From Catajapyx aquilonaris (Eukaryota): DNA of 20,000 nucleotides. A model generated the notes under the pieces. It ran no database searches. It worked only from the letters and a program-made list of their open reading frames with translations, and was not told where the DNA came from. Both the position numbers and the translations under genes were made by a program. Shown piece after piece: positions 4,201 through 19,584 of this stretch (the first letter of the stretch is position 1; each line of letters starts with the position of its first letter). The stretch covers positions 55,176 to 75,175 of the forward strand of contig JYFJ02001606.1 in the NCBI GenBank assembly GCA_000934665.2, written 5' to 3'.

Positions 4201-7200
4201 TATCCTCCGATATTTTTTTCCATTCTCGCTCTTTCTATCCTTCCATCCATTCCAACCAATGAAGGGAGGAGTTCAGTAGTTTTGTGAAGCAAGGCCAAAG
4301 TTCTCTGTTTGTATCTGCATGAAGAGCTCGATTTATTGTCGAATTGCGTGGCACACAGAATTTCGTGAGTCTGCTCTTGTCACGAAATTTGTGTAGAAAA
4401 AAAGTTAAGAGTTGTTGAATAAATAAATAAATAAATGTCACTTCATATTTAAGTTTGATTAATATGACACACCCGGTACATTGTCTGGGAAGTTGAATGG
4501 ACATATCGATTTGTAAAAAATAATAATATATGGTGTGTACCTTAACGTGATGTGTGTAATCAGAGTGAGTCAGGGGTGTCTTGACCTAGGTCTTGAGATT
4601 GTGCGATTCGTAATGCAAGTTCCGTTACTGGACTGACCTTGAAATGTGTTATGCGGACAATCATGGGGTTTCATCATCGCAGTTTTTGTTTCCTTGGGAA
4701 GATCTGACCTTACACAAACACAGTAGGCGTAAACAAAAACATATATCGGAGGGAGTCATCTTATAATTGCCAGCAATGCTAATTAGGCGTCTTAGAATAA
4801 GCGCAGAGGCCCTGATTCGTGACATGTTAATTATTGTTTTCGATACTGCTGGAAAAATGAACGAAAATACACTCAAAGCTCATTGTTGCGACCTTCGTGA
4901 ATATTTTAAACGATGAAGAATAGCAAACTGACCAGGTATACGTGGAAGTAAATAAATAAATAAAACGCTATGTGAATGTGGGGCAATGTAATATTGCTCC
5001 ACATTTAATATGCAAAAATCAATTGAGCGTGTCACACACCCGCATTTAAATATTGATATTGGACATCTCCCATGTTGACCAAAATTGTAACGCGCTTTTT
5101 GAATTAAACCGCATAATTAGTTAGATAATATAATTGACACACATTTATTTATTTTCTGGTTCTTCCCCAATAGTTATATTTGTACAATGCGTTTGATAAA
5201 AACAATTATAAAAATTTGATTGCATGAAATTGTTTCGATATACAAGGTGGTGCGAATTTCTGTGCCAAAATTCATCCAGTTGATTTTCTCTGCACAGACA
5301 GCATTGTACTTTTGAAGTGTATAAAACGTCTCATTCAAAAACCATTCTTTTCTCTACAGTCTACAGTGTAAGGCATAACTCTGTTTTTTCCTCGCTTTAT
5401 TCCTCTCGCTCAGCAAAGAAGTTTAATGTATTCCTAGCGCTTCTTCTCTCTCGCAAACGTCTATCTCGCGTCTCCATTTCAAGAAAAAAAAAACGGTGTG
5501 GGTATATATATAAAAAATGAGAGCCGGCCATGCCAATGCATAATAAATCTTTCGCTCGTTTTAATGCTAAAAGGAGCACCGACGCTCCCCAAATAAATTG
5601 GCAGTTGAATATCACGAGAATCCAAGGCAAACCGATGAATAAATTACTAGATTCTCCTCTCTCAATATTTTTTTTTGTTCCAGGCAATTCAAATGATTCC
5701 AATATTTTTTTTGCTCCTTCTTGTTATATCCAGCCGTCTATATCTGCTAGACTCATGTCTATCACGAAACCCTTCACAAAATTTGGGACTTTCTAAATGC
5801 ATGTGGTGCATAGCCATACTACAGGATGGGTCAACATTGGTTGAAAAAAAATGTGGCTTTCTTACCTGTTTGGCAAAAAAAATATTTTGGGCTGTACACC
5901 ACCTTGTAGTTGTGGCTATAAAATGTTGATGCTCTCGTTTCCTTCATAGACATAACATATCTCCTCTTTCCAGTTTCCGCTTCTTGACGATTTCGACCTC
6001 TTCGACCTGTCGGATTGGGAACGAAAGTTTATTCTAGGGAATGATCCCAAAGGTAAGGACTCATTCAGTGACTCGATTGACTCTCTCTTCTTATTTTTTT
6101 TCTTATTTCTAGGACAAAATGGCTTAGTTTTTTTTATTATTTCCAGTAGTGGCTTAACATTTGTATGCCTGATTAGGGTGAAATCGATCTGTTATAAATC
6201 ACTCAGGACTACGTTTTTCCCAGGGAGAATTGCAGTTTTATGCTTAATGGATGTGCTCATTGCTTCAGAACGATGTTTATTGCCAAGTGATTTAAACGGC
6301 TATTTTTGGTTGGAAACCCCCCATTATTTAATAGTGCCAATTAATTTGTGCATGACGTTTCCCCCTCTCTGCTTAATGTATAGCAATCACTGCTGAAATC
6401 AAAGGTTTTCATAGGACACATCGTATTAAATTTGAGCACTGTTTATCGTTAATGTATCAACTTTTTATGACATAATTTTGCGGTTATATAGACCACAATT
6501 TTTTACGTGCCAAAGAATGTTATAACAATAAAGCAGATTTGCCAAAAATAACATTGCTTTTTATGCTGCTGTGGTTATTTTGTTTACAAAATGTAGTGAC
6601 CACCTGTCTATTCGCTATGTTACGCAAAGAAATCGGATGCAAACATGTTTTCTGTAATAATTATAATTATAATAATGATGATGATGATAATTTCCTGACC
6701 AGAAAAGAGCATCGAGGTGGCTAGAGTGCTGCAGCACTCCTGGCAAGAGCCAGATGAGTCCGGAAGGCCGACCTCTGACCTGTCCCTCACCCTGGAGACC
6801 AGCGAAGGTGACCTCCACCTGCGGCTGCGAAGGCAGCTCGACCTGGTGTCACCCGCTTTTAAGGTGGTCATCCGAGGAGAGAAGGGAGTGGAGGAGAAGA
6901 GGCACGTCCCCCTGCCCCTTTGCCTCTTCACTGGAAAGGTGACCTCGGGTCACGGAGGTCACGCCGCCCTCTCCACATGCGGAAACGGCAACGGCCTCGT
7001 GAGTTCATTCTCTTTAAGAAATATGGGATCATCACCAACGTGCATGTAGTACCACTTTCACTCGCAGAGTGGCAGTAATGTGCAGAGAGGGATGATCCGC
7101 CATCTATGATAAGAGTAAGGTATTACATGGACAGTCGCGGCCCCGTGAAATTCTGCCACGTTTTAGTCACTAATTTAGACTTTAAAATTATTTATCACGT

Positions 7201-10200
7201 TCTGTTGGCAAGGTCAGACCCCAATGTGTTCATTTAATCCGGATATTTACACGGAAGGGCATGTATTAATAAACACCCCCGCCCCGCATTTGCCCTGTTA
7301 TGTACACATTACCCAATGCAGCCTCTCCCATCGTGGTCAATAAGCTTGTGTATACACCTGTGGAAAAAAAAACCTGACATTTTCACCTGTACTAGGAAAG
7401 TGAGGTTCATACATCTCATTGAAAGAACCGGTCGGCCTATTGATTCCTTTCGTAGAAACGTTGCAGGTGAAAATTGGTTTGAGGATGACAAAAGTTTATT
7501 GATCATCATTCATCAATATGTATACACACGAGAGAAAAATGACCTCTAAGTTCCCATTGTGTTGCACCCAGCCTTGGAAGCCATGGAGACATTACACAGG
7601 TGAAAGAGCTGGTGGTTACCAAGCCTGCAATTGACGCAACCAATCCACTCACCTCTCTGCAGTCTTAATTAGCAATCACGCGATATTAGCGCGGCATCTA
7701 AAATTCGACAATATGGCGATGAGGAAAGCGTCAAATTACATTACAGGAGCTACAGCTTTGTAACAGCTGATTTTCGCAATTTTAGCAACAAATTAGGGCA
7801 ATGCCAAAAATACCTGCTATAGAAGATTTTTTTACGAGCACAACCGAACAATTAGCGCATCTTGTACGGTTGGCATTATCAATGATATCTGGTCAACTCT
7901 CTGTATAATGGATGCACTTATTTCCAACGCTATGCTTGGGGGGAGGGCAAAATGGCAGACGTTTGCGACGTTGCCAAGGCTCTGGAACGAACCTCAACTG
8001 TGCGAATTATGAATCATGATTAATAATTAGTTTGTGGTAGTATGCAAATGTTCTTCTTCTGAAGAATTCAGGGGCGTTTCCCTGTGCCCCTCCCACACTT
8101 TTGGATGCAATGGTCGTGTCGACCACGAGGCCTCTCTTCTGATGCATCAATCAAAGCATGGGGAAGGGCAATGGAGAGAGTGGGGGGAGGGCAAAAAAGG
8201 AAGCTCCTGACTGGTATGGATCACGCGAAATCAGGATTCAAAATTCATCCTGAGCACATCACGTTGTTCGCTTCCACCTAATTGCTAGTGCTTCCCTGTC
8301 ACCCAGTGTCCAACCCCACCATTTTTCAGGGGTAACTTATGGGTTTGAACGACTTGTAATGTCAGATAAGCCCGAAAAATAGTCCATGTTTCCTTACCCA
8401 GGTTTAAACAGGGTTGTCCAACAAGAAAGAAACACTGATTCAGGGAATGCTGATTATTTATATCATTCTTTAAAAAAAATGCCAAATCATGTAATAGCTG
8501 AAAGTAACTGCTACTCTGCGAGACAGATCAAGTGAGAAGATATGGCCAAACAATCGAGGCGTAAAGAGCAAAGAATTGCAGCTGCAAGATACGTAACATT
8601 TTTGCTTATAATAAAGCAGCTAAATAATCAAAATTCTGTAATCAATGTTCTATTCTTATCATACCTTACTATATACAGTTTATGATTGTTACTTTATGCA
8701 TTTTGTCCTTGAACCATGTGAGTTCCCGTAATTTACACAGCTTTTGCCAAAATCTATAATTAAAAATACTACCAAATTGAAATTAATAATTGATCGCCTC
8801 CCTGGATAAAACATGTAAGCTTTCCGCTAATCAGCAATAATTGAGCTATAAGTTGCAATTAATCAAGCATTAAAAGCAGTCACAAGTGTTGCAAAGGTTT
8901 CTGACGTCATTGTATGCATAATGGAGAACTTTTAATAAAAAGCTCCCCGGCCGCTAAAATGATCGGTACATAGATTCTCATTTTGGATGATTGCTTTTTT
9001 AGTACAGAGTTGTTTACTGAGCCGGACTCCACTCTTGTTCATTCTCAATTACTTAATCGAAGCGGTTGAAAGCAGAATGAAAAATCATCTCCAAAAATAT
9101 CGAGTTTGCCATATAGTCTGATCAAAGAAAGTTCGTCGAATAATGTCATGTTTTCACTAAAAAAAGTTAATGAGGAAGCAGCTTATTTCTTATAATCCTA
9201 TCATTTCAAAGCCATTTGCTGTCTTATTATCTTGAAAGTATCCAGAGTGCAGATAATGCAGGTTATGCACAATGGGCCAGTTGTTTACTCCAGCAACCAG
9301 TCATTCGCAATTATTTTCCACATCATATCGCACATAGTACACTGTATCACTCAATATGCGCACATTTCTAGTGGTTATTGCTCTTTAGCTGGTGTGACTG
9401 GCAATCTGGCCACACAACTTTATTTGAATATCCGTTTTAGAGTCTGGAGAGAGAATGAAGTGGCAGAGTGTGGCTTCTGACAAGGCGGTTTCAAATGTGT
9501 ATAACCTGAGACGGAAGTTGTGTCCCCTCAACTAGAGACTAATTACTCATTAATTGCAGCGTGGTGTGGTAGTGACACCGACGGCCCACTATGTCATTCA
9601 CCCTTTGCCGCACAACCTTCGTCGGAAGCGTGAAATCGACAATGTGACCAGCGATGGTTTGCATATCCTGATGAGAGGTCCATCTTTCGGAGTCTGTGGT
9701 CTCAAAAGTGAGTATATAGGAGACGTAAATAAATTGTTGATTCTACACGCGAAAGTGACCGTACACATGAATAAGTTGCAGACGCCACAGACAAGACATA
9801 TGCTTGTGTATATTGAGTTGCGTGACACTTGCCACTTAAAAATGAATTAGGAAAAAAGGACACTGGAGCATCTGAAAAATGAATGAAACGAGTCAATTGG
9901 CACACTTCATTTTCATGCTGTGTTCTTCTAAATAATTCACTTTTTATATGGCATATGACACACTTTACTATGCAATGTGTCTCACTCACTGTGGATATAC
10001 TATTCATATGATGTCATTCATATGCTGTCGTGTTCCTTGGCTTCTCAGCATTGCAAATGTGGATTGTCTGAGCGAAAAGAGACAAATATCATGCCACCGA
10101 GTTTTTAATTAAATTATGATTTCTACTAGATATTTTGCCATAATAACAACACATTTGACCTATAAACGAATTAAAGACAAGGACATAAAGGATGCCTAAT

Positions 10201-13200
10201 ATTACGGAAATAATTAACCGTTATAATAAATCTTTAATGAATATTAATTCATGTACATAACGAATTGAATGTCTACAATAATTCAGCCCCTAATTACGTG
10301 ACGAAATTGCGTAATATTTGATGCTGATTGCTACAAATATTTTTCCTGCTCATATGATTCACAAAAAAATATCATTCTATTTTGTGCATTACAGCACATA
10401 CAATATTTTTTGTATGCATACCAACTCTCCTGTAAGTTGCTTGTGTTGTAAACTGCCGATTCCGGCACCTTTTTTGTGTGTAAACCCCCTCTTTTCATTT
10501 CAAAGGGGAGGGGTGAACTTTAATTTGTGCCATCATTACGTTTTACGGTGCGAGGCGGAAGATAAAGCTGCACTAAAATGTGCGGCAGCATCCTCGATAA
10601 CAATAAAAAAATACAGCGTCGGATAAACGCGAGTAGCATCTGCCCGGTGCATAAAACAGGCTGACAAAACGGTTTTTCTCTTCCCGATAGAGGTGTAGAT
10701 TATGGAAGATTAAACGTGGTCCTCCCAAAAAGCTGCAGTAAAAACCCCCACCCCTTACCTCGGTATGACGAGGTGGACCGTTTTGTTGTGTATTTTGCGA
10801 AAATTGCTAGCTAATACCATTGATCACAAGGACCCCATCCGCTTTGTTTCATCCTGGCATGATGCAACCCAACGATGCTGCTATTGGTAATATATCAGTT
10901 ATACTAGGAACAGCAAGGCACAATTAGTTTCATTTTCAAAGATTGTAATAGGGGTATGTGCATATGTCCGTGGTGAGTCATCAGTATAGGCCATCTATGT
11001 GAGAGAAATGTTTTTTTTCCCAGATATAACACGCATGATGCCGCCTGTCCAGAGTAAGATGGAACCGACAACATGCGTGACACATGATGATGGTACTACA
11101 ACGACCACTAGGTCAGTAACACAGGGTACTACCACGGGAGGTTCTTCCTCTACCGAGAGTGTCGAGGGAACAGCTGCTGGCACTGACGGTGGAGATGTAA
11201 CCACTGTCAGTAGCAACGATACGTCCAACTCGACCAAACCAACAAATACTGCCAACACGACTGGGTCATCAACCACTGAGATTCCTACGACACCCAAAGT
11301 TCCTACGGTCACGTCTCAGGTCACGTCCGTGCCGTCTACGGGAAGGTCAAGGGTCAAACGGAAGGTCAGCCAACGCACCATTGAGGTCGCAGTCTTCGTC
11401 GACGACGTCATGTACACAGCTGTCGAGCGACAGTACCCTAAGGACGAGCCTACGAACAAGATCATAGACATTGTCTTCACTATGATCAACGCCGTGAGTA
11501 TATTCTTGATATGCAGTGGACTTTAGTGCCGGTTAGGTTAGGTTAAGTTAGGTTGTGGTAGGAGATAACCTAACCTATCCTAACCTACCTAATCATATCC
11601 TAATCTAACTTAACCTACCCTACCTTGCCCTACCCTACCCTAACCACCATTGAAGTCCACGGATAGGTTAGGTTAAAACCACGTGCTGCATATGTCATAT
11701 GATAACTTATGCCGTTTTTCCAGGTGGAGCTCCTGTACAACCTGCCCTCATTAGGGATACCCTTTCGACTGGTCCTGCTCCGAATCGACATACTGACAAG
11801 ACGTGCCATCGGATCCAAGCCCAACAAGAGAGGAGGTGAGGTCGAATCGTACCTGTCTTCCTTCTGCCAGTGGCAACGGGCCTTGAACCCAGGAAATGAC
11901 GACAATGTGGATCACTGGGATCACGCACTTCTCCTCACGGGGCTCAACCTCTACGATCGTGTTCCGAGCGCTGACACAGTCATAGGTATTCTATTAATAT
12001 TGCACGAGACGTCGCTCCAGATTTCCTAAAGACTGTCGTTGTTTGTATGAATTATTGATGGATTCGATCAAGAGGCTTAACATCTGCTTAAAACTCCGCA
12101 GGTCTAGCTTGGGTGTCGGGAATGTGTATGGCGCAGTACAGTTGCACAATCAACGAGGGAATTAGCTTCGAATCGGTGTACGTCATTGCGCACGAGATGG
12201 GTCACAAGTGAGTACAAATACTGATGATCCTATCTAATTGCAAGAAGTAATCCAAATTAATATTAATGTAAGAGTACATTATTCATGTAGCAAAATCCCT
12301 TCTTATTCCTTTCCTGCATGATTTATTAAAATTGAATCATTTTCTTCGCAGTTTGGGAATGAGGCATGACGGCCAGAACAGTTGCGACGAGAACATTTAC
12401 ATCATGTCTCCTTCTCTGGGTCCAGGGAAGGTTACTTGGTCGCCATGCAGCAAGGCGGAACTGGAAGCATTTTTAAACACCAGGTAATTTAAAAAAATAC
12501 TTTCGTTGGATATAATTTGAATGTCCTTAATAACACCGTGCTACTTTTTTCAGTCAAACGTCCTGCTTGGATGACCAGGCCAATCCTAACCCCAAACTTC
12601 GTCACAATCAGGGATCGACATATCCAGGTGAAAAGTATCCGGCCCTGCAACAATGCCAGTATGCCTTTGGACGTCTCTTCAGTCCGTATGTCACCAAAAA
12701 GTCACCTTTTGAGGTAAGAAGTCCTACAATCTAAAAAGTGCAGTCACCTCAATTGGCACCTATTTCAACAGGATATATGCAGAGAGCTATGGTGCCAGAA
12801 TAGAACATACGCACTGCGAGCTCATCCTGCTTTAGACGGAACAAACTGCGGACCTAGTAAGGTACAGTACAAAAAAAATGTGCTGTTGACAATCCTAATT
12901 TATGATTACTAATCGTCCTAATTACCATCCAGATATGTATGGGAGGCAAATGTATGACTGACAATCGCGTTAAGAGTCCTGGTACAAAGGCTGTGTCCGG
13001 CAGCAGGACCACAAAGGCTCCGTCAAATGGGTCTGGAAAGAACACTGGTACCACCTTGTCTCCTAGGAGATCACTTCTGTCTCCGACCAAAAAGAGCGTG
13101 CCCAACTCGGCTCCGTCCAGCCTCAGGGTCCAGAGGGACATCCCAGGGAGGTACGTCAGGAGGTTCGTGCAGAAGATGACCGAAGCTGTCACATTCGGGT

Positions 13201-13325
13201 ATGTACAGATATTTAAAAGCATTAATCTCAAACAGTAGTAAAATACAGTAATTAATGTAATGACAAACACATTCTAACAGCATACAATGTGTTTCAGGTT
13301 GAAGCGATTGATGTGGTGGCCATAG
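1206..13325 (+). CDS. ADAMTS-like (reprolysin/M12B) secreted zinc metalloprotease, 12 predicted exons, ~707 aa, no TSP1 repeats seen
   Basis: Phase-compatible GT-AG exons: 1206-1292 (signal peptide [29 protein letters not shown]), 5974-6052, 6703-6998 (prodomain [16 protein letters not shown]...CLFTG...AALSTC), 9560-9707 (RGVV..HYVIHPL..CG cysteine-switch-like), 11024-11493 (Thr-rich, [12 protein letters not shown]), 11724-11985 ([19 protein letters not shown]), 12102-12207 ([15 protein letters not shown]), 12352-12483 (NLGMRHD..IMSP Met-turn..WSPCS), 12554-12713 (CLDD..PGEKY..QQC), 12772-12861 ([16 protein letters not shown]), 12933-13198 (CMGGKC + low-complexity tail), 13298-13325 (LKRLMWWP*). 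Total 2124 nt, open frame throughout. Exons 1, 2 and 12 are less certain than the catalytic core. Confidence 0.9.
6655..6690. repeat. Short (TAA)/(TGA) trinucleotide microsatellite
   Basis: taataattataattataataatgatgatgatgataa just upstream of the exon 3 acceptor. Confidence 0.5.
11531..11675. repeat. Degenerate TTAGG/CCTAA (arthropod telomere-like) pentamer tract in both orientations, ADAMTS intron 5
   Basis: ggttaggttaggttaagttaggtt (11531-11554), then taacctaacctatcctaacctacctaa...ctaccctaacc (11566-11645), then ggataggttaggtta (11661-11675). Confidence 0.75.
12191..12370 (+). other. Zinc-binding motif HEMGHNLGMRHD split by a phase-2 intron (12208-12351)
   Basis: cac gag atg ggt cac aa|gtgagt ... 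ttcgcag|t ttg gga atg agg cat gac gives HExxHxxGxxHD, the ADAM/ADAMTS signature, followed by the IMSP Met-turn. Confidence 0.93.
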
Positions 13326-14259
13326 CTGTGCCTTTTGTGTAGAGACCCGCTTAACAACTGGGGACCAACTTTGCCGAAGATTGAAGCTTATTGTGGGTTC
13401 GACCCAGTGAACATTGTGAGAGTGATTACCTGAGTGCAACAAGTGAAAGCTAAGGACTTCCAAGGTGTTGGAAGCTACTTGTTTCTTTTCTGAGAAAAGA
13501 AACCCCCCCCCCCTGCTCCTTACCTAAAAGCATAATTATGTATGTAGTCAGCAGACAATGAGAATATACTCAAAACCACCTGTTTCCGTCCTATGAACTA
13601 TACTAATGCGCCTATTAAGACACACAGTTTGAAAAATCGTTAACCCTGTTTGCTGCAACTACGGTCTAATTTGCATCAAATTATTCACAAGTGAATCATG
13701 ACGTAAATAAATGCCATGGATTTATCAGAGTAGTTCTGTCTCTTGTGGTGACAATGTTCCAGAAAAATGTCTTCTTCATATTGCAACATCGATAAGTAGA
13801 ATATTATATCAAAATTTTAAATGCTATTGTCTACATTGGTTGGAGATAAAAAGTTGCGATATGGCGGTTGTTGATATGTTTTATGCAAAATTGATTTGCA
13901 ATGTGGAAATCCTGACATCACAATACCCTAATCCCAGTTCTTCACAGCAGAACTTATCAAGAAAAATTGACTGCAAGGTGCAACGGTATAAGGTTCGGCG
14001 ATGTACCACTATTTATTATTGACATTACACTAATTGCTTACTCCAGTAATCATCGTTGTAAAACCAGCAATTCGGCTAACAGAATGTGGCCTTGATTGTT
14101 GCTTCCAATACTTCTATATTTTAACTGGTTTCTGGAGTGAACAACTCATTCTTTCGTATAAGAGAGATCACAATGGAAGCCCACAATTTTCAGGGTAACG
14201 TAATGCTGTCATAACAGTTCAGCAAGTGCATTGCACGAGAGATACAAGGCTTCCTTATT

Positions 14260-14311
14260 AACATGTGGTGCTTCATTATTTTGTTTCATTGCCAGAGCAA
14301 CAGGTGTTGCA
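14260..14311 (+). promoter_or_regulatory. Conserved upstream module of copy 1 (AACATGTGG + TTGC-N3-AGCAACAGGTGYTGCA)
   Basis: AACATGTGG at 14260-14268 and AGCAACAGGTG at 14296-14306; both motifs recur upstream of all four intact copies. Confidence 0.6.
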
Positions 14312-14469: not shown

Positions 14470-14899
14470 ATGGCCAAGTGCTTTGCTCTCTTCTTCCTTA
14501 TTCTACTGGTGACAGCAGGAATTATTGCTTTAGATTGCCGACCAGGTAAACGTGCACATTTTTTACTCACGAATTCGCCATATGGTAAAGAGGTTCATTA
14601 CATTTTAAAGACATACGGTATGTGTGTCAATAATTATTGCAGATCAGTGCAAGCCAGGGACTAAGTACTTCAATGGCTGCAACAACTGCACTTGTGGCAA
14701 CACATTATTGGAAGACATTTGCACAGAAAAAGCTTGTCCCAAGAAACCAGGAGAATGTCCCAATGACACAAGCGGGCAAGGAATATGTCTGTTTGACCCA
14801 AACGTCAACTGTTGGGATGACTACCAGTGTTGTGGAACAAAGAAGTGTTGTCCTTCCGGTTGCAATGGAATTTGCAAGGAAGTAGCTACTGTAGAATAG
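14470..14899 (+). CDS. Secreted pacifastin-like + WAP domain protein, copy 1 (subtype A), 110 aa
   Basis: Exons 14470-14545 and 14643-14899 (phase-1 GT-AG intron). MAKCFALFFLILLVTAGIIALDCRPDQ-CKPGTKYFNGCNNCTCGNTLLEDICTEKAC-PK-KPGECPNDTSGQGICLFDPNVNCWDDYQCCGTKKCCPSGCNGICKEVATVE. Confidence 0.9.
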
Positions 14900-15675
14900 C
14901 CTACTGAGAAAGTAAAAATGTATTCGCCACGTATGCAAAGATAAGCCAGGTTTCACTGATAAAGTTATTTTTATTTGCGTTTAGTGTACTCTGATTCACT
15001 TTGTTTAGTCGGTTGTAGTTACTTAGGCTCATCGCATATTTTACAGTAGGCTACACAATGCCTTTTATTTTATGGGTGTGAGTTCCGTCACCCCGTCACG
15101 TTATACCGGTACCGGTTTCTTCATTTGAACGTTCCTTATGCTATGTAGTTTATGAAATAACTGGGAGCTTCGTAGAGGTTATTGGCATTTATAATTAATT
15201 TCTTAATCTGCAATTATTTTACTTCGTCTTTACATTAGAGTCTGCTTACACATTAAAAGTATTTCATAAACTGCTAATAAAAAGAGCAGCTGAGCTAAAA
15301 AAATTATCAGAATATAGTAATCTGCTACTTTTGCGTTTAAGTAATTTGGTGACATACCTTCAGCAGTAGTAGTTACTGTTTGACTGAGTAATAACAATGC
15401 TTATATATACCTTCAATAATATCAGTGTTACTTTGTAACGTACTGTAACGTCACATTTAAAAGAAATTATCTCAGCTATGAAAAAATAAATATCCTCTCT
15501 TAAATCGCTTTATATTAAAATATTCCAGCACCTTAAATATTATCACAGGCTACTTTTGCAATCGATATCCCTTGTTTGAGTAGAATAAAAAGTTCACAAT
15601 AAATATTATTCTCCCATATTTTCAACCCTCAGCCAACGCAATGAAGCAAATATGTGCATTTTGCAATGATATGGG

Positions 15676-15761
15676 CCACATGTTTTGCAAATATTATCAC
15701 AAGGCATATCTGCATATTCATCTACGAATTTTGCGCCATTGCAAAAGCAACAGGTGTTGCA
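15676..15761 (+). promoter_or_regulatory. Conserved upstream module of copy 2
   Basis: CCACATGTT at 15676-15684 (reverse complement of AACATGTGG) and AGCAACAGGTG at 15746-15756. Confidence 0.6.
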
Positions 15762-15921
15762 AAGAAATACGAAATAGCTTCCTCGTCTTTATTAATTCAA
15801 ATTGTGAGCAAACGCATGCCTTTCACACCTTCGCATTGCTCACTAAATCAGCAGCGTCTGAAGGAGAAGCAAGAGAGGTTATCCCGTATTTATCCGAACC
15901 TGGTTATACCGAGATCCAGTC

Positions 15922-16322
15922 ATGTCGAAAGTATTTGTCCTCCTCTGCCTTATTCTGGTGATAACAGCAGGAGTCACTATTGCTTGCCGCCCAGGTAAAT
16001 ACAAATTTTACGATATATTTTAATTCATTTTGCTGATTTTATATCTGTATCCTACTTTCTAATACTATCTTGCACAGATCCGTGTAAACCAGGGACCAAG
16101 TACTTCAATGGATGTAACGACTGCACCTGTGGCGATACACCATGCGACGACAGGTGCACCAAGAGAGGCTGCCGAGTTAAACCCGGAAAATGTCCAGATA
16201 ATAAAGATAGCAAGATTTGCCCTGGCACAAAGTTCTGTGCCAGTGACTACGATTGTTGCGGACAACAAAGGTGCTGTGATTCGGGTGGCGTTATGATTTG
16301 TCAGGATCCACTTGATTTATAA
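15922..16322 (+). CDS. Secreted pacifastin-like + WAP domain protein, copy 2 (subtype B), 105 aa
   Basis: Exons 15922-15994 and 16078-16322; this frame is absent from the ORF track. MSKVFVLLCLILVITAGVTIACRPDP-CKPGTKYFNGCNDCTCGDTPCDDRCTKRGC-RV-KPGKCPDNKDSKICPGTKFCASDYDCCGQQRCCDSGGVMICQDPLDL. AATAAA at 16379-16384. Confidence 0.9.
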
Positions 16323-16893
16323 ATGCAATGTGTAAAGCGACTACCTGGCGACTATACACTTTAACACTAGACCGTTTAAATAAAGCTGGATAATACGTAT
16401 TTCCTATTACTGTGTTTCTTCAGTTATCAAGGTGTCCCTTTCATGCAAAATATATTCCAAATGCCGATATCCTAATCGTGTGTTTTATTAATCATTACAA
16501 AACATGTTGTAGAGTTGACAATAATACATTTATTATACTTTTACACATTTTTTCCGTGTTTCATATGACAATATTATGGTTATATGAAACACGAATAAAA
16601 AAGAACTAACGACTGACATTATTTTGTTTCAAAATTTTGCTTATCAATATTGCGTGGGGGGACGGGGAATTTCTAGTTGCAAGCTATCCTCTTTGCTGTT
16701 TGTCCTTAACTATTCACGATACATTACTAAACGATAGTTAAATAATTCGTATGTCATAGTCGAATTTAAAATATGCAATTTTTGTATTTAAAAATCTTTC
16801 AACTATAAATTTTAAAAATTGCACATTTTGTGTAGTCCCATATGCGTTCTGCGTGATGCCTAGTATTTTATTTAGGAAGATCTGGCCTCTTAT

Positions 16894-17009
16894 GGCCGGT
16901 TTCACCGAGCCCGGTTTTGATTTAAAAAAAACCCGGCCTATCTATTTGCAGGGATTTTCCGAAAGAACGGGTTTTTTAAAAATCGAAACCGGGCTCGGTG
17001 AAACCGGTC
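16894..17009. mobile_element. MITE-like element, ~116 bp with ~42 bp imperfect terminal inverted repeats
   Basis: Left arm ggccggtttcaccgagcccggttttgatttaaaaaaaacccg (16894-16935) is nearly the reverse complement of right arm cgggttttttaaaaatcgaaaccgggctcggtgaaaccggtc (16968-17009). Flanks are TA/TTA-like. It is GC-richer than its surroundings and non-coding. Confidence 0.7.
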
Positions 17010-17536
17010 TTAGAGTGAGACCTATTCATCTGACATCTTCACCCAATATGCGAGAAGCACCCCTACTTAGCGCAAATGTTGAGAATCAAGCTGGATGTCC
17101 AATACCGGATTGCACAGATCATTATTTTAGCACTCATTTGGTAGCCTCCCACACAAATTGATCAGAAATGTGAACATTTTAAGGCCCGAATAATTGTTAC
17201 ATATCGTATAAAATAAATACGAATTAGGAAGTAGTATGACACTGCTATAACAACGAACTTACACAAATAACTTATACAAAACCGATCTTGTACCAAAATA
17301 ATAGCGATACTTTAAAATACTTGAGCTTTAGCAAAATAAATCTTTTTAAAGTTGTCCTTATGTATATACTTGAAACTTAAATATTCCAGCAACGTAAATC
17401 ACCACAGCATTTTTTTTTTGCAATTGGAATCTCTGTTTGCGAAGAACTAAAAAGTGCGCAATATTATTCCCAATCATTTCAACCCTTTGTGAGCACAATG
17501 AAGAAAATATGTACGTATAACATACAAGTTACTGTA

Positions 17537-17607
17537 CCACATGTTTTGCGAACTACAAAAATAAGTTCTCGCATATTTGCGCCATTGCTGAAGCAACAGG
17601 TGCTGCA
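17537..17607 (+). promoter_or_regulatory. Conserved upstream module of copy 3
   Basis: CCACATGTT at 17537-17545 and AGCAACAGGTG at 17592-17602. Confidence 0.6.
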
Positions 17608-17771
17608 GAGACATACGGAATACCTTCCACTTCTTTATTATTTTTCAAAATATGAGCAAGCCTTTCATGCAGTACCTTCATATTTCTCACTACATCACGA
17701 GCATTCGAGACAGAAGCAAGTGAGCTTATTCCGGCTTATTCGAACCCGGTTAAAAGTACAGAGATCCAGTA

Positions 17772-18174
17772 ATGTCGAAAGTACTTGCTCTCTGTTGCCT
17801 TATTCTGGTGATAACAGGAATCTCCATGGCTTGCCGTCCAGGTAAATACAAAATACTTCTGAGCATATTAATTAATTAGCTGTTTTTAAATCCGTACCAC
17901 TCTAATATTGTTTTGCATAGATCCATGTAAATCAGGTACCAAGTACTTCAATGGATGTAACAACTGCACTTGTGGCGATACACCATGTCAAGACAGTTGT
18001 ACCGAGAAGTTATGCAGAGAGAAACCAGGACGATGTCCCATTTCTGCAAAGACTGAAAAATGCAAGACCTGCCCGGGCACGAAGTTCTGTGCCAGTGACT
18101 ACGACTGTTGCGAAAACCAAAAGTGCTGCACTTCGGGTTCTCGCAAGGTTTGCAAGAGCCCAATAAAATCATAA
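17772..18174 (+). CDS. Secreted pacifastin-like + WAP domain protein, copy 3 (subtype B), 107 aa
   Basis: Exons 17772-17841 and 17921-18174. MSKVLALCCLILVITGISMACRPDP-CKSGTKYFNGCNNCTCGDTPCQDSCTEKLC-RE-KPGRCPISAKTEKCKTCPGTKFCASDYDCCENQKCCTSGSRKVCKSPIKS. AATAAA at 18282-18287. Confidence 0.9.
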
Positions 18175-18679
18175 ATTGGGTGGATAGAGTTGATTTAGTG
18201 TTTGATGTATACTCTCTGATGGTCAAATAATTTTTGGCAGTACAGCAATTACTGTCCATCACATGCTTAGAGAAATGTTTGAATAAAATGTATAATGTAT
18301 GTTAATAGAATGTGCATGAGCTTACTAAAAATCTCCTTCACATAAGGTACTTGGGATATTTATATGCAAATCCAGGTTTCTATTTGTTGTATCAATAAAA
18401 ATCGATAGTGCATTTCTGAATTGAATTTCTCTTCTTTGGAGATGCCTGCAGTATTTTCATTTCAAATGCTAATTACTTGAACCATCTAAATAATTATAGC
18501 GTCAGCATATTTCCTGATACCGTACAGTAAATATTTCATGAATAAATACATATATATTTCTACTTTGACTGTTAATTCTTTAGCAATTTGGATGAAACAT
18601 CTCCATTTTCACAAGCAACAATACGGTTTCTGATAATAATAGATATTACAAATAGCAGGCAAGGTTCTCAGTCGAATGC

Positions 18680-18845
18680 CCCTCGTTCATGACAATTTAG
18701 CAAATGCATTGCCTGAGTCTTACAGTTTTTTTTAAAAAAAATTGTGTCGTTGCCAGAGGATTTGTACAAAAAGAAGCCAGGAGAATGTCCCTCTGACCCA
18801 GTCGAGACTGCATCTTATGTAGTTGACCCAGATATAAACTTTTAA
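18680..18845 (+). pseudogene. Collapsed relic of a subtype A pacifastin-WAP gene
   Basis: Promoter pieces homologous to copy 4 (ccctcgttcatgacaatttagcaaatgcattgc; tgtgtcgttgccagag) run straight into KKPGECPSDPVETASYVVDPDINF* (18771-18845), which aligns to copy 4 DKPGKCPSNPIEAGPCVFDPEVNCW. No signal exon, two Cys lost, premature stop. Confidence 0.75.
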
Positions 18846-18950
18846 AGCTCTACAGAGACTACAGTAGCAGCTCACTTTTTCATTGTAACATCCCTCTTTC
18901 ATAGGAATTCAGCAAATTGCATTGCATAAAAGGTACAAGGTTCCCTAATT

Positions 18951-18998
18951 AACATGTGGTGTTTCATTTGTGTCGTTGCCAGAGCAACAGGTGCTGCA
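18951..18998 (+). promoter_or_regulatory. Conserved upstream module of copy 4
   Basis: AACATGTGG at 18951-18959 and AGCAACAGGTG at 18983-18993. Confidence 0.6.
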
Positions 18999-19134
18999 CG
19001 TGCTGTACCTTCCTCTCACTTCCTCATTCAAACGCAGCCAGAGCTAAATCAGTACGGTATACCTATAGAAATTGCGCCTTGAATCACTATATCAGAACCT
19101 GATAAAATTTGAAGACCTGACAGAGATCAGCACA

Positions 19135-19584
19135 ATGGCCAAATGCTTTATTCTCTCCTGCCTTTTTCTGCTCATCACTTCAGAAATAGCTTTCGCTTGC
19201 CGCCCAGGTAAGAACAGATTTTCAAGTCATAAATATATATTCGCCATAAAGCCAGCATATAACTCGTGCTAATTTAATGCCTTTTAAAATGTGTGCCATC
19301 AATAATATAGTGCTCTTTCAGTTCCGTGTGAACCAGAGGCTGGGTACTTCAATGGCTGCAACAACTGCACCTGTGGCAACACACGCATGGAAGACATTTG
19401 CACAGAAATAGCCTGCCCCGATAAACCTGGAAAATGCCCCTCTAATCCAATCGAGGCTGGACCTTGTGTATTTGACCCAGAGGTTAACTGCTGGGATGAC
19501 TACCAGTGTTGTGGGTCACAAAAGTGTTGTCCTTACGGTTGCAACGGAATTTGCACCGAGGTAAAAGGCCCCAAACGTGGTTAA
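19135..19584 (+). CDS. Secreted pacifastin-like + WAP domain protein, copy 4 (subtype A), 111 aa
   Basis: Exons 19135-19207 and 19322-19584. MAKCFILSCLFLLITSEIAFACRPVP-CEPEAGYFNGCNNCTCGNTRMEDICTEIAC-PD-KPGKCPSNPIEAGPCVFDPEVNCWDDYQCCGSQKCCPYGCNGICTEVKGPKRG. Confidence 0.9.

Follow-up and report, generated by a model that had tools for sequence, protein, structure and literature searches.

What do the short, cysteine-rich genes repeated along a contig of the arthropod Catajapyx aquilonaris encode, and what might their products do? The stretch in question (the window) is 20,000 nucleotides of contig JYFJ02001606.1 (positions 55,176 to 75,175; assembly GCA_000934665.2), and between its positions 14470 and 19584 there are four paralogous two-exon genes, all on the + strand, with products of 105–111 amino acids. 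In each of them a predicted signal peptide is followed by a pacifastin-like domain (PLD) and a WAP domain. The function that best fits these proteins, with a probability of about 0.6, would be that of secreted canonical serine-protease inhibitors with the PLD as main head, in a family expanded in this arthropod by tandem duplication; its functional steps are drawn from what is known of the domain families.

The four genes share one plan. Exon 1 (14470–14545 in gene 1, 15922–15994 in gene 2, 17772–17841 in gene 3, and 19135–19207 in gene 4) encodes the signal peptide and then Cys-Arg-Pro, and exon 2 (14643–14899, 16078–16322, 17921–18174, and 19322–19584, respectively) encodes both domains. The introns are GT..AG, in phase 1, and 79–114 nt long, and the proteins have 110, 105, 107, and 111 amino acids. 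All four show an N-terminal hydrophobic core (Kyte-Doolittle 11-residue maximum 3.1–3.8), and the signal peptides are predicted from this hydrophobicity alone. A preliminary description of this DNA, made from its letters only, had proposed four intact two-exon genes with signal peptides, and its coordinates, introns, and N-termini are borne out. After the signal peptide there are 16, 16, 17, and 16 Cys in genes 1–4, and the net charges of the mature proteins are -2, +1, +7, and -4.

Chance open reading frames are ruled out, as the two-domain cysteine pattern occurs four times in the window and never in 200 dinucleotide shuffles. Logan contigs of the public run X1 jump 97 nt at gene 1 and 83 nt at gene 2, exactly the predicted introns (one contig spans 14640–15471 at exon 2 of gene 1), and five further GT..AG gaps in the gene upstream of the cluster. 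This run has no RNA label on its record, and its contigs are taken as cDNA because seven clean intron skips are what cDNA gives. The cluster is transcribed at least in part, and the expected spliced transcripts are supported for genes 1 and 2 of the four, the absence of X1 cover over genes 3 and 4 being uninformative.

Pfam divides the exon-2 product of all four genes into Pacifastin_I (about residues 1–35) and WAP (residues 34–80), families I19 and I17 of MEROPS (PMC5673224). With gathering cut-offs of 27.9 bits for PF05375 and 20.8 bits for PF00095, the respective scores are 33.8 and 32.6 bits in gene 1, 22.7 and 29.7 in gene 2, 22.7 and 26.4 in gene 3, and 23.9 and 33.5 in gene 4. All four WAP scores (26.4–33.5 bits) are above the cut-off; the pacifastin scores of genes 2–4 (22.7–23.9 bits) are below it, though pacifastin is the sole N-terminal Pfam match in these genes too. 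There are at least 22 copies in the genome, counted as 22 intact PLD-WAP exons on seven contigs and gathered by two protein queries and two Pfam scans. The same genome has 61 Chitin_bind_4 matches, a sign of an arthropod, and two weak 7tm_6 matches, too few for a finer placement among arthropods. Pacifastin_I matches 21 and WAP all 22 of these at E ≤ 0.1, and 21 of the 34 genome-wide Pacifastin_I matches exceed the gathering score. The VWC and SVWC profiles match none of the 22 at the same threshold, and a VWC fragment as the N-terminal module is rejected for lack of any such match; the PF23244 VWF profile matches a single member (E = 0.0023).

The six-Cys pacifastin spacing C-x9-12-C-N-x-C-x-C-x6-10-C-T-x3-C is found in all four window genes. 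When the PDB is searched with the sequence of gene 1, SGCI, PMP-C, and other pacifastins give the best, gap-free matches over residues 2–33, and SLPI and elafin match residues 32–78. The AlphaFold model made from the 22-member alignment (predicted local distance difference test, pLDDT, 80.9; predicted template-modelling score 0.57) gives a Foldseek list headed by pacifastins (about 2–3 Å over 31–34 residues, probability up to 1.00, E of 0.04 or worse) and WAP proteins, and VIA-align superposes the WAP of the gene 1 model on elafin, SLPI, and omwaprin with Z of 5.9–6.5. A single-sequence model of gene 2 (pLDDT 55.4) was too poor to be used. Pfam, PDB, and fold searches thus agree with the domain calls made earlier: the four exons encode pacifastin and WAP, and not VWC.

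Both domains depart from their textbook forms. The preliminary description held that the pacifastin Gly is shifted, but the gap-free alignment to locust SGCI shows the Gly right after Cys4 in place and the consensus Gly at Cys4+3/+4 lost. Because the latter is missing in 4/4 window genes and 16/22 paralogues, the domains are called pacifastin-like and considered off the strict consensus; it is kept in 376/390 short-loop PLD motifs of public matches. An Asp two residues before PLD Cys5 is invariant in the family. The Cys1-Cys2 and Cys2-Cys3 spacings of the WAP are mostly 8–9 and 7 (9 and 7 in genes 1 and 4, 8 and 5 in gene 2), compared with 6 and 8 in the antiprotease WAPs of elafin and SLPI (PMC11408880). 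In gene 1, the PLD runs from Cys1 at 14648 to Cys6 at 14737 and the WAP from 14744 to 14875. The residues at P1-P1′ of the PLD loop are Glu-Lys in genes 1 and 3, Lys-Arg in gene 2, and Glu-Ile in gene 4, and WAP Cys2 is followed by Leu-Phe in gene 1 and Val-Phe in gene 4.

Genes 1 and 4 have all eight canonical WAP Cys; genes 2 and 3 lack Cys7, the WAP of gene 2 being short-looped as well, and have an extra Cys in the PLD Cys4-Cys5 loop, a loss and a gain that may reflect a second rewired bond. An additional Cys after WAP Cys4 is present in all four window genes and in 10/22 paralogues, and nine of these ten have a Cys in exon 1, compared with none of the 12 others. When this column is masked, the ten still fall on one side of a branch (support 74/84). 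Judged from the sequences, a disulfide joining the mature N-terminus to the WAP was probably gained once, in the clade that includes the window genes. On contig C3308 (6895–7125, - strand) there is a paralogue with a frameshifted signal exon that has lost both WAP Cys2 and Cys7, as expected for a 2–7 bond.

Across the family, the six PLD Cys are invariant, Thr occupies P2 in 21/22 members, Asn follows Cys2 in more than 90%, and the distance from PLD Cys6 to WAP Cys1 is 6 in 21/22. Eight different residues are found at P1 (Glu 5, Lys 4, Arg 4, Leu 3, Tyr 2, Met 2, Asp 1, Val 1); in the redundant and nonrandom sample of public matches, Glu is at P1 in 22 of the 390 short-loop motifs. A signal exon ending in Arg-Pro is intact in 20/22 copies, frameshifted in one, and was not found for one. 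The count of 22 leaves out copies truncated at the end of a contig, one PLD interrupted by a stop, one exon with a PLD alone, one gene with a signal peptide and a WAP but no PLD, and what is probably a gene of three exons.

In the tree, genes 1 and 4 are sisters (support 96/91) and genes 2 and 3 probably so (89/92). Grouping the four window genes as one clade is rejected (p-AU 0.02, approximately unbiased test); hence, the cluster is older than its latest duplications. Of the 231 pairs of members, the 16 with the least divergence have ratios of nonsynonymous to synonymous substitution rates (dN/dS) of 0.23–0.79, which shows that the proteins evolve under constraint. Positive selection was tested with custom site-model code, a fixed tree shape, and naive empirical Bayes. 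In an eight-gene clade, M8 is preferred over M8a with p of 0.003–0.013 under loose trimming and p of 0.15 after removal of three gap-adjacent codons; in a second set, of seven genes, p is 0.18–0.19. The sites flagged in the eight-gene clade (loose trimming) are WAP loop positions before Cys2.

Some of the copies left out of the count have their own arrangements. On C2346 (about 15600–19400, - strand) there are two signal-PLD gene starts ending in phase-1 splice donors, the nearer of which probably splices to an exon encoding a Thr/Pro linker and a WAP. The PLD and WAP of this probable three-exon version would lie on either side of an intron, an arrangement relevant to exon shuffling or intron loss. 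On C6058 (about 10200–10490, + strand) a signal exon is spliced directly to a family-type WAP, the PLD being deleted. C9994 (1–330) and C16659 (330–626) carry near-identical gene starts, each broken off where the contig ends, that may be two alleles or the product of a very recent duplication. A separate and large WAP expansion accounts for many tandem copies among the 82 WAP matches in the genome (contigs C12563, C12917, C7131, C8197, C15379, C1673, C865, C1015, C395, and C2914), and the copies examined have a short Cys2-Cys3 spacing of 3.

As protease inhibitors, these proteins would work as follows. Removal of the signal peptide would leave a protein of 84–90 amino acids in which a three-disulfide PLD, with the bonds 1–4, 2–6, and 3–5 if it follows the pacifastin fold, and a WAP remain joined, since there is no usable dibasic site between them, and in the clade that includes the window genes the extra disulfide probably ties the N-terminus to the WAP. 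A precursor cleaved at dibasic sites is rejected: a Lys-Lys is found in the linker of gene 1 only among the window genes, where Pro follows it, and a dibasic pair in 3/22 linkers overall. The PLD loop (Cys5-Thr-P1-P1′-x-Cys6) would bind a protease of the chymotrypsin fold in the manner of a substrate. Copies with Lys or Arg at P1 (8/22, including gene 2) would block trypsin-like enzymes, and those with Leu, Met, Tyr, or Val (8/22) chymotrypsin- or elastase-like ones; those with Glu or Asp (6/22, including genes 1, 3, and 4) either would target acid-specific proteases, microbial glutamyl endopeptidases for example, or would inhibit only weakly. In genes 1 and 4, with Leu or Val after Cys2, the WAP loop could serve as a second head; in genes 2 and 3 it is probably just a scaffold or a binding module. 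The "double-headed" inhibitors of the preliminary description are half supported, because the Cys spacing of the WAP is not 6 and 8. The likely role would be control of endogenous or microbial proteases in haemolymph or gland secretion. A conserved scaffold with a variable P1 is the pattern of inhibitory PLDs (PMC2689174).

A number of results weigh against this function. The Pfam pacifastin cut-off is passed by gene 1 alone among the four, Foldseek gives no match at E ≤ 0.001, and VIA-align gives the 33-residue PLD a Z of just 2.0–2.3. The consensus Gly is absent as described, and the WAP spacing misses the 6/8 rule of antiprotease WAPs (PMC11408880). The covariation of the extra Cys pair amounts to one event, because the pair arose once on the tree. 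The tests for positive selection do not flag P1 itself. What an acidic P1 does in pacifastins is described as unknown (PMC2689174), and two wasp PLD peptides whose P1 is Arg or Met reportedly fail to inhibit trypsin or chymotrypsin (PMC10545863). Finally, NF-kB-like sites are not in excess upstream of the family members (7 observed, 4.4 expected).

GATA and TATA counts are likewise at or near chance in the upstream regions, but one element does stand out there. An E-box block, GCAACAGGTG, is invariant in the four-way alignment of the window genes, at 14297–14310 and also at 15747, 17593, and 18984 (+ strand), 151–179 nt 5′ of each ATG, and E-boxes number 17 over the 22 upstream regions of the family against 5.1 expected. 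We take the element to resemble binding sites of the Snail/Scratch family.

The proteins could instead be crustin- or waprin-like antimicrobial or microbe-binding proteins, with an active WAP and the PLD in place of the Cys-, Gly-, or Pro-rich N-terminal region of crustins. A signal peptide and a single C-terminal WAP are indeed the crustin layout (PMC9409781), to which the C6058 paralogue has been reduced; omwaprin is among the best fold matches, and a spacing other than 6/8 suits noninhibitory WAPs. Gene 3 is cationic, but 14/22 exon-2 products are net negative and only two reach +5 or more, and the antimicrobial option of the preliminary description is weak because three of the four mature proteins are acidic or near neutral. 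Moreover, the PLD figures in none of the seven crustin types set out in the accessible text of PMC9409781, it retains its inhibitor signature, and the upstream regions are not enriched in NF-kB sites, all of which makes the crustin-like function unlikely.

It is likewise improbable that the proteins belong to a specialised secretion, such as venom, a fluid for prey capture, glue, silk, or a moulting or reproductive fluid, in which they would act as scaffolds for binding, cross-linking, or channel modulation instead of inhibiting proteases. In favour of such a role, the family has expanded in this species while copies were born and lost (some are pseudogenes, others PLD-only or WAP-only), gene 3 has an unpaired Cys, the conserved E-box suggests shared cell-type control, and both pacifastin and WAP proteins are known from the adhesive proteomes of barnacles (PMC8371367) and from the salivary glands of predatory bugs (PMC10545863). 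Yet the canonical loop is kept in all copies, and expression in a gland is equally compatible with inhibitors.

The proposed inhibitors combine modules that are known. A 2026 survey gives all 155 of 155 short-loop ("conventional") PLD proteins as PLD-only and lists WAP among the partners of long-loop PLDs, so that the co-occurrence of PLD and WAP is already in print (PMC13388995); WAP is mentioned neither in the two supplements of that article nor in the main text of PMC2689174. In the family described here each PLD is fused to a WAP within one exon, unlike the PLD-only short-loop precursors of the survey (PMC13388995). A signal-PLD-WAP protein is not described in the accessible passages of PMC13388995, PMC2689174, PMC5673224, PMC10545863, PMC5691223, PMC13673367, PMC8371367, PMC11408880, PMC3742519, or PMC9409781, with subscription journals, figures, and bioRxiv supplements outside the search.

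Among 202 public proteins gathered by sequence and profile searches, 11 have a PLD-like motif directly before a WAP: "kielin/chordin-like" proteins of Mercenaria (five isoforms), Ruditapes, and Dreissena, three proteins of Pollicipes, and one unnamed ENA protein. Cys1-Cys2 spacing is 16 in the bivalves and 9–10 in the Pollicipes and ENA proteins, and PLD Cys6 is 6–7 residues from WAP Cys1 in all 11, a similar joint that may reflect either shared ancestry or the shortest workable junction. None consists of signal, PLD, and WAP alone, the closest being a 200-amino-acid Dreissena isoform with flanking VWC domains, in searches that have little power for small proteins and do not reach arthropod genomes lacking annotation. 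A single-sequence homolog search gave no candidate, and an alignment search at similar length gave four matches among 22 candidates, all WAP-only. The best 150 of 1151 matches of an exhaustive profile search are nearly all long repeat proteins, and small 1:1 relatives are possible among the other 1001. Matches in the ESM Atlas, which serve as leads only, are at best 0.78 with exon 2, to WAP clusters, and 0.81 with the isolated PLD, to an unnamed entry. The stand-alone secreted 1:1 PLD-WAP family is thus apparently undescribed, as the preliminary description had supposed of the architecture, but the pairing itself is not unique, since it occurs inside bivalve and barnacle proteins; nor is it lineage-specific, for clam proteins contain the junction 14–16 times and one barnacle protein contains it twice.

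It is very unlikely that the N-terminal module is instead a VWC/FnI-type domain, trimmed as in the bivalve repeats and serving in the matrix or in growth-factor binding, and that the proteins are extracellular modulators. The sole close architectural relatives are indeed kielin/chordin-like proteins, with repeats that both Pacifastin_I and VWC/VWF profiles recognise, and the fold list includes VWF and mucin domains among its lower entries, besides the single PF23244 match. Yet a VWC domain has ten Cys in two subdomains and its profile matches no member at E ≤ 0.1, pacifastins rank above VWF and mucin in the fold search, Cys1-Cys2 spacing is 9–10 here and 16 in the bivalve units, and the family PLD profile has medians of 21–27 bits on four PLD-only proteins (two of them insect-named) against 14 on the clam units.

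A bolder version of the inhibitor function, which we consider rather doubtful, would have the PLD-WAP pair as one old cooperative module shared by molluscs and arthropods, here freed from large matrix proteins and expanded into a set of two-headed inhibitors stapled by a disulfide, those with Glu or Asp at P1 being directed against microbial glutamyl endopeptidases. If true, this would provide a first target for acidic-P1 pacifastins and link matrix-bound with free ones. The same junction in clams, mussel, and barnacle makes the origin of the pairing testable in any case, and the window family is a clear exception to the PLD-only rule for short-loop arthropod pacifastin domains (PMC13388995). 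Its 22 natural variants, with eight P1 residues and six acidic copies, constitute a panel for the targets of acidic-P1 pacifastins and for inhibition by 9/7-spaced WAPs, and a scaffold of 85 residues with two possible binding loops is of potential interest to inhibitor engineers. Since neither the two modules nor a tandemly expanded inhibitor family is out of the ordinary, the finding is moderately surprising.

The surroundings of the four genes include a decayed WAP start at about 18768–18845 (+ strand), assigned to repeat family D5, whose translation has a KPGECP motif, has lost Cys2, and meets a stop after about 25 codons; neither a PLD nor an exon 1 was found with it. Between genes 2 and 3, at 16891–17012, lies a 52-nt inverted repeat (85% complementary), which X1 contigs leave into other sequence, suggesting a dispersed repeat resembling miniature inverted-repeat transposable elements (MITE-like). 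The end of the window coincides with that of the contig, and the cluster may therefore continue further. Upstream, at about 6700–13330 (+ strand), there is a multi-exon ADAMTS-like metalloprotease gene, five introns of which are skipped in the X1 contigs. Its exon at 11727–11984 matches the catalytic domains of ADAMTS-4, -1, -5, and -13 (best E = 4.9e-7), its HExxH zinc motif is split by the intron at 12208–12351, and a Thr/Ser-rich stretch lies N-terminal of the catalytic part. The intron at 11524–11632 contains TTAGG/CCTAA-like repeats as an inverted pair.

Among known systems, elafin and the C-terminal domain of SLPI (PF00095, MEROPS I17) share with the WAP of this family the KPGxCP start, the long Cys2-Cys3 loop, the predicted four-disulfide fold (Z 6.1–6.5), and, in genes 1 and 4, Leu or Val after Cys2. 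The WAPs described here differ from them in the spacing of 8–9 and 7 instead of 6 and 8, the extra Cys after Cys4, the loss of Cys7 in genes 2 and 3, and the lack of the Met that elafin and SLPI have at P1′. The locust pacifastins SGCI/PMP-C and SGTI/PMP-D2 (PF05375, MEROPS I19) resemble the PLD in six-Cys spacing, Asn after Cys2, Thr at P2, and predicted fold; as in the window, their genes place the signal peptide on a separate first exon and lie in clusters of paralogues (PMC2689174). These pacifastins are, however, PLD repeats split at dibasic sites, whereas here a single PLD is fused to a WAP, the consensus Gly is lost in 16/22, an Asp is invariant two residues before Cys5, and P1 is acidic in 6/22.

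Crustins and the single- and double-WAP-domain proteins (SWD, DWD) of crustaceans are also small secreted arthropod proteins with a C-terminal WAP, and a crab DWD inhibits subtilisin (inhibition constant 4.12 nM as printed) and is antimicrobial (PMC3742519). In crustins of types I–VII the WAP is preceded by a Cys-, Gly-, Pro-, or Ser/Leu-rich region or by a second WAP (PMC9409781), and the proteins are usually cationic; here there is a PLD instead, and most members are acidic. The bivalve proteins (Mercenaria XP_053408337.1, Ruditapes isoform X3, and the 200-amino-acid Dreissena isoform X2), which are automatic annotations, have long-loop PLDs (Cys1-Cys2 16) that also score as VWC/VWF, a WAP Cys2-Cys3 spacing of 3, and 14–16 units in chains of 1600–1900 amino acids or VWC flanks; they share with the window family the WAP directly after the PLD, 6–7 residues from Cys6 to Cys1, and a P1 varied among repeats. 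In the barnacle Pollicipes pollicipes, the "balbiani ring protein 3-like" proteins XP_037076249.1 and XP_037076245.1 are multi-WAP chains of 940–1141 amino acids whose motif lacks Thr at P2 and has no Pacifastin_I match at E ≤ 0.01, but these are arthropod proteins in which a short-loop (9–10) PLD-like motif stands directly before a WAP, twice per chain.

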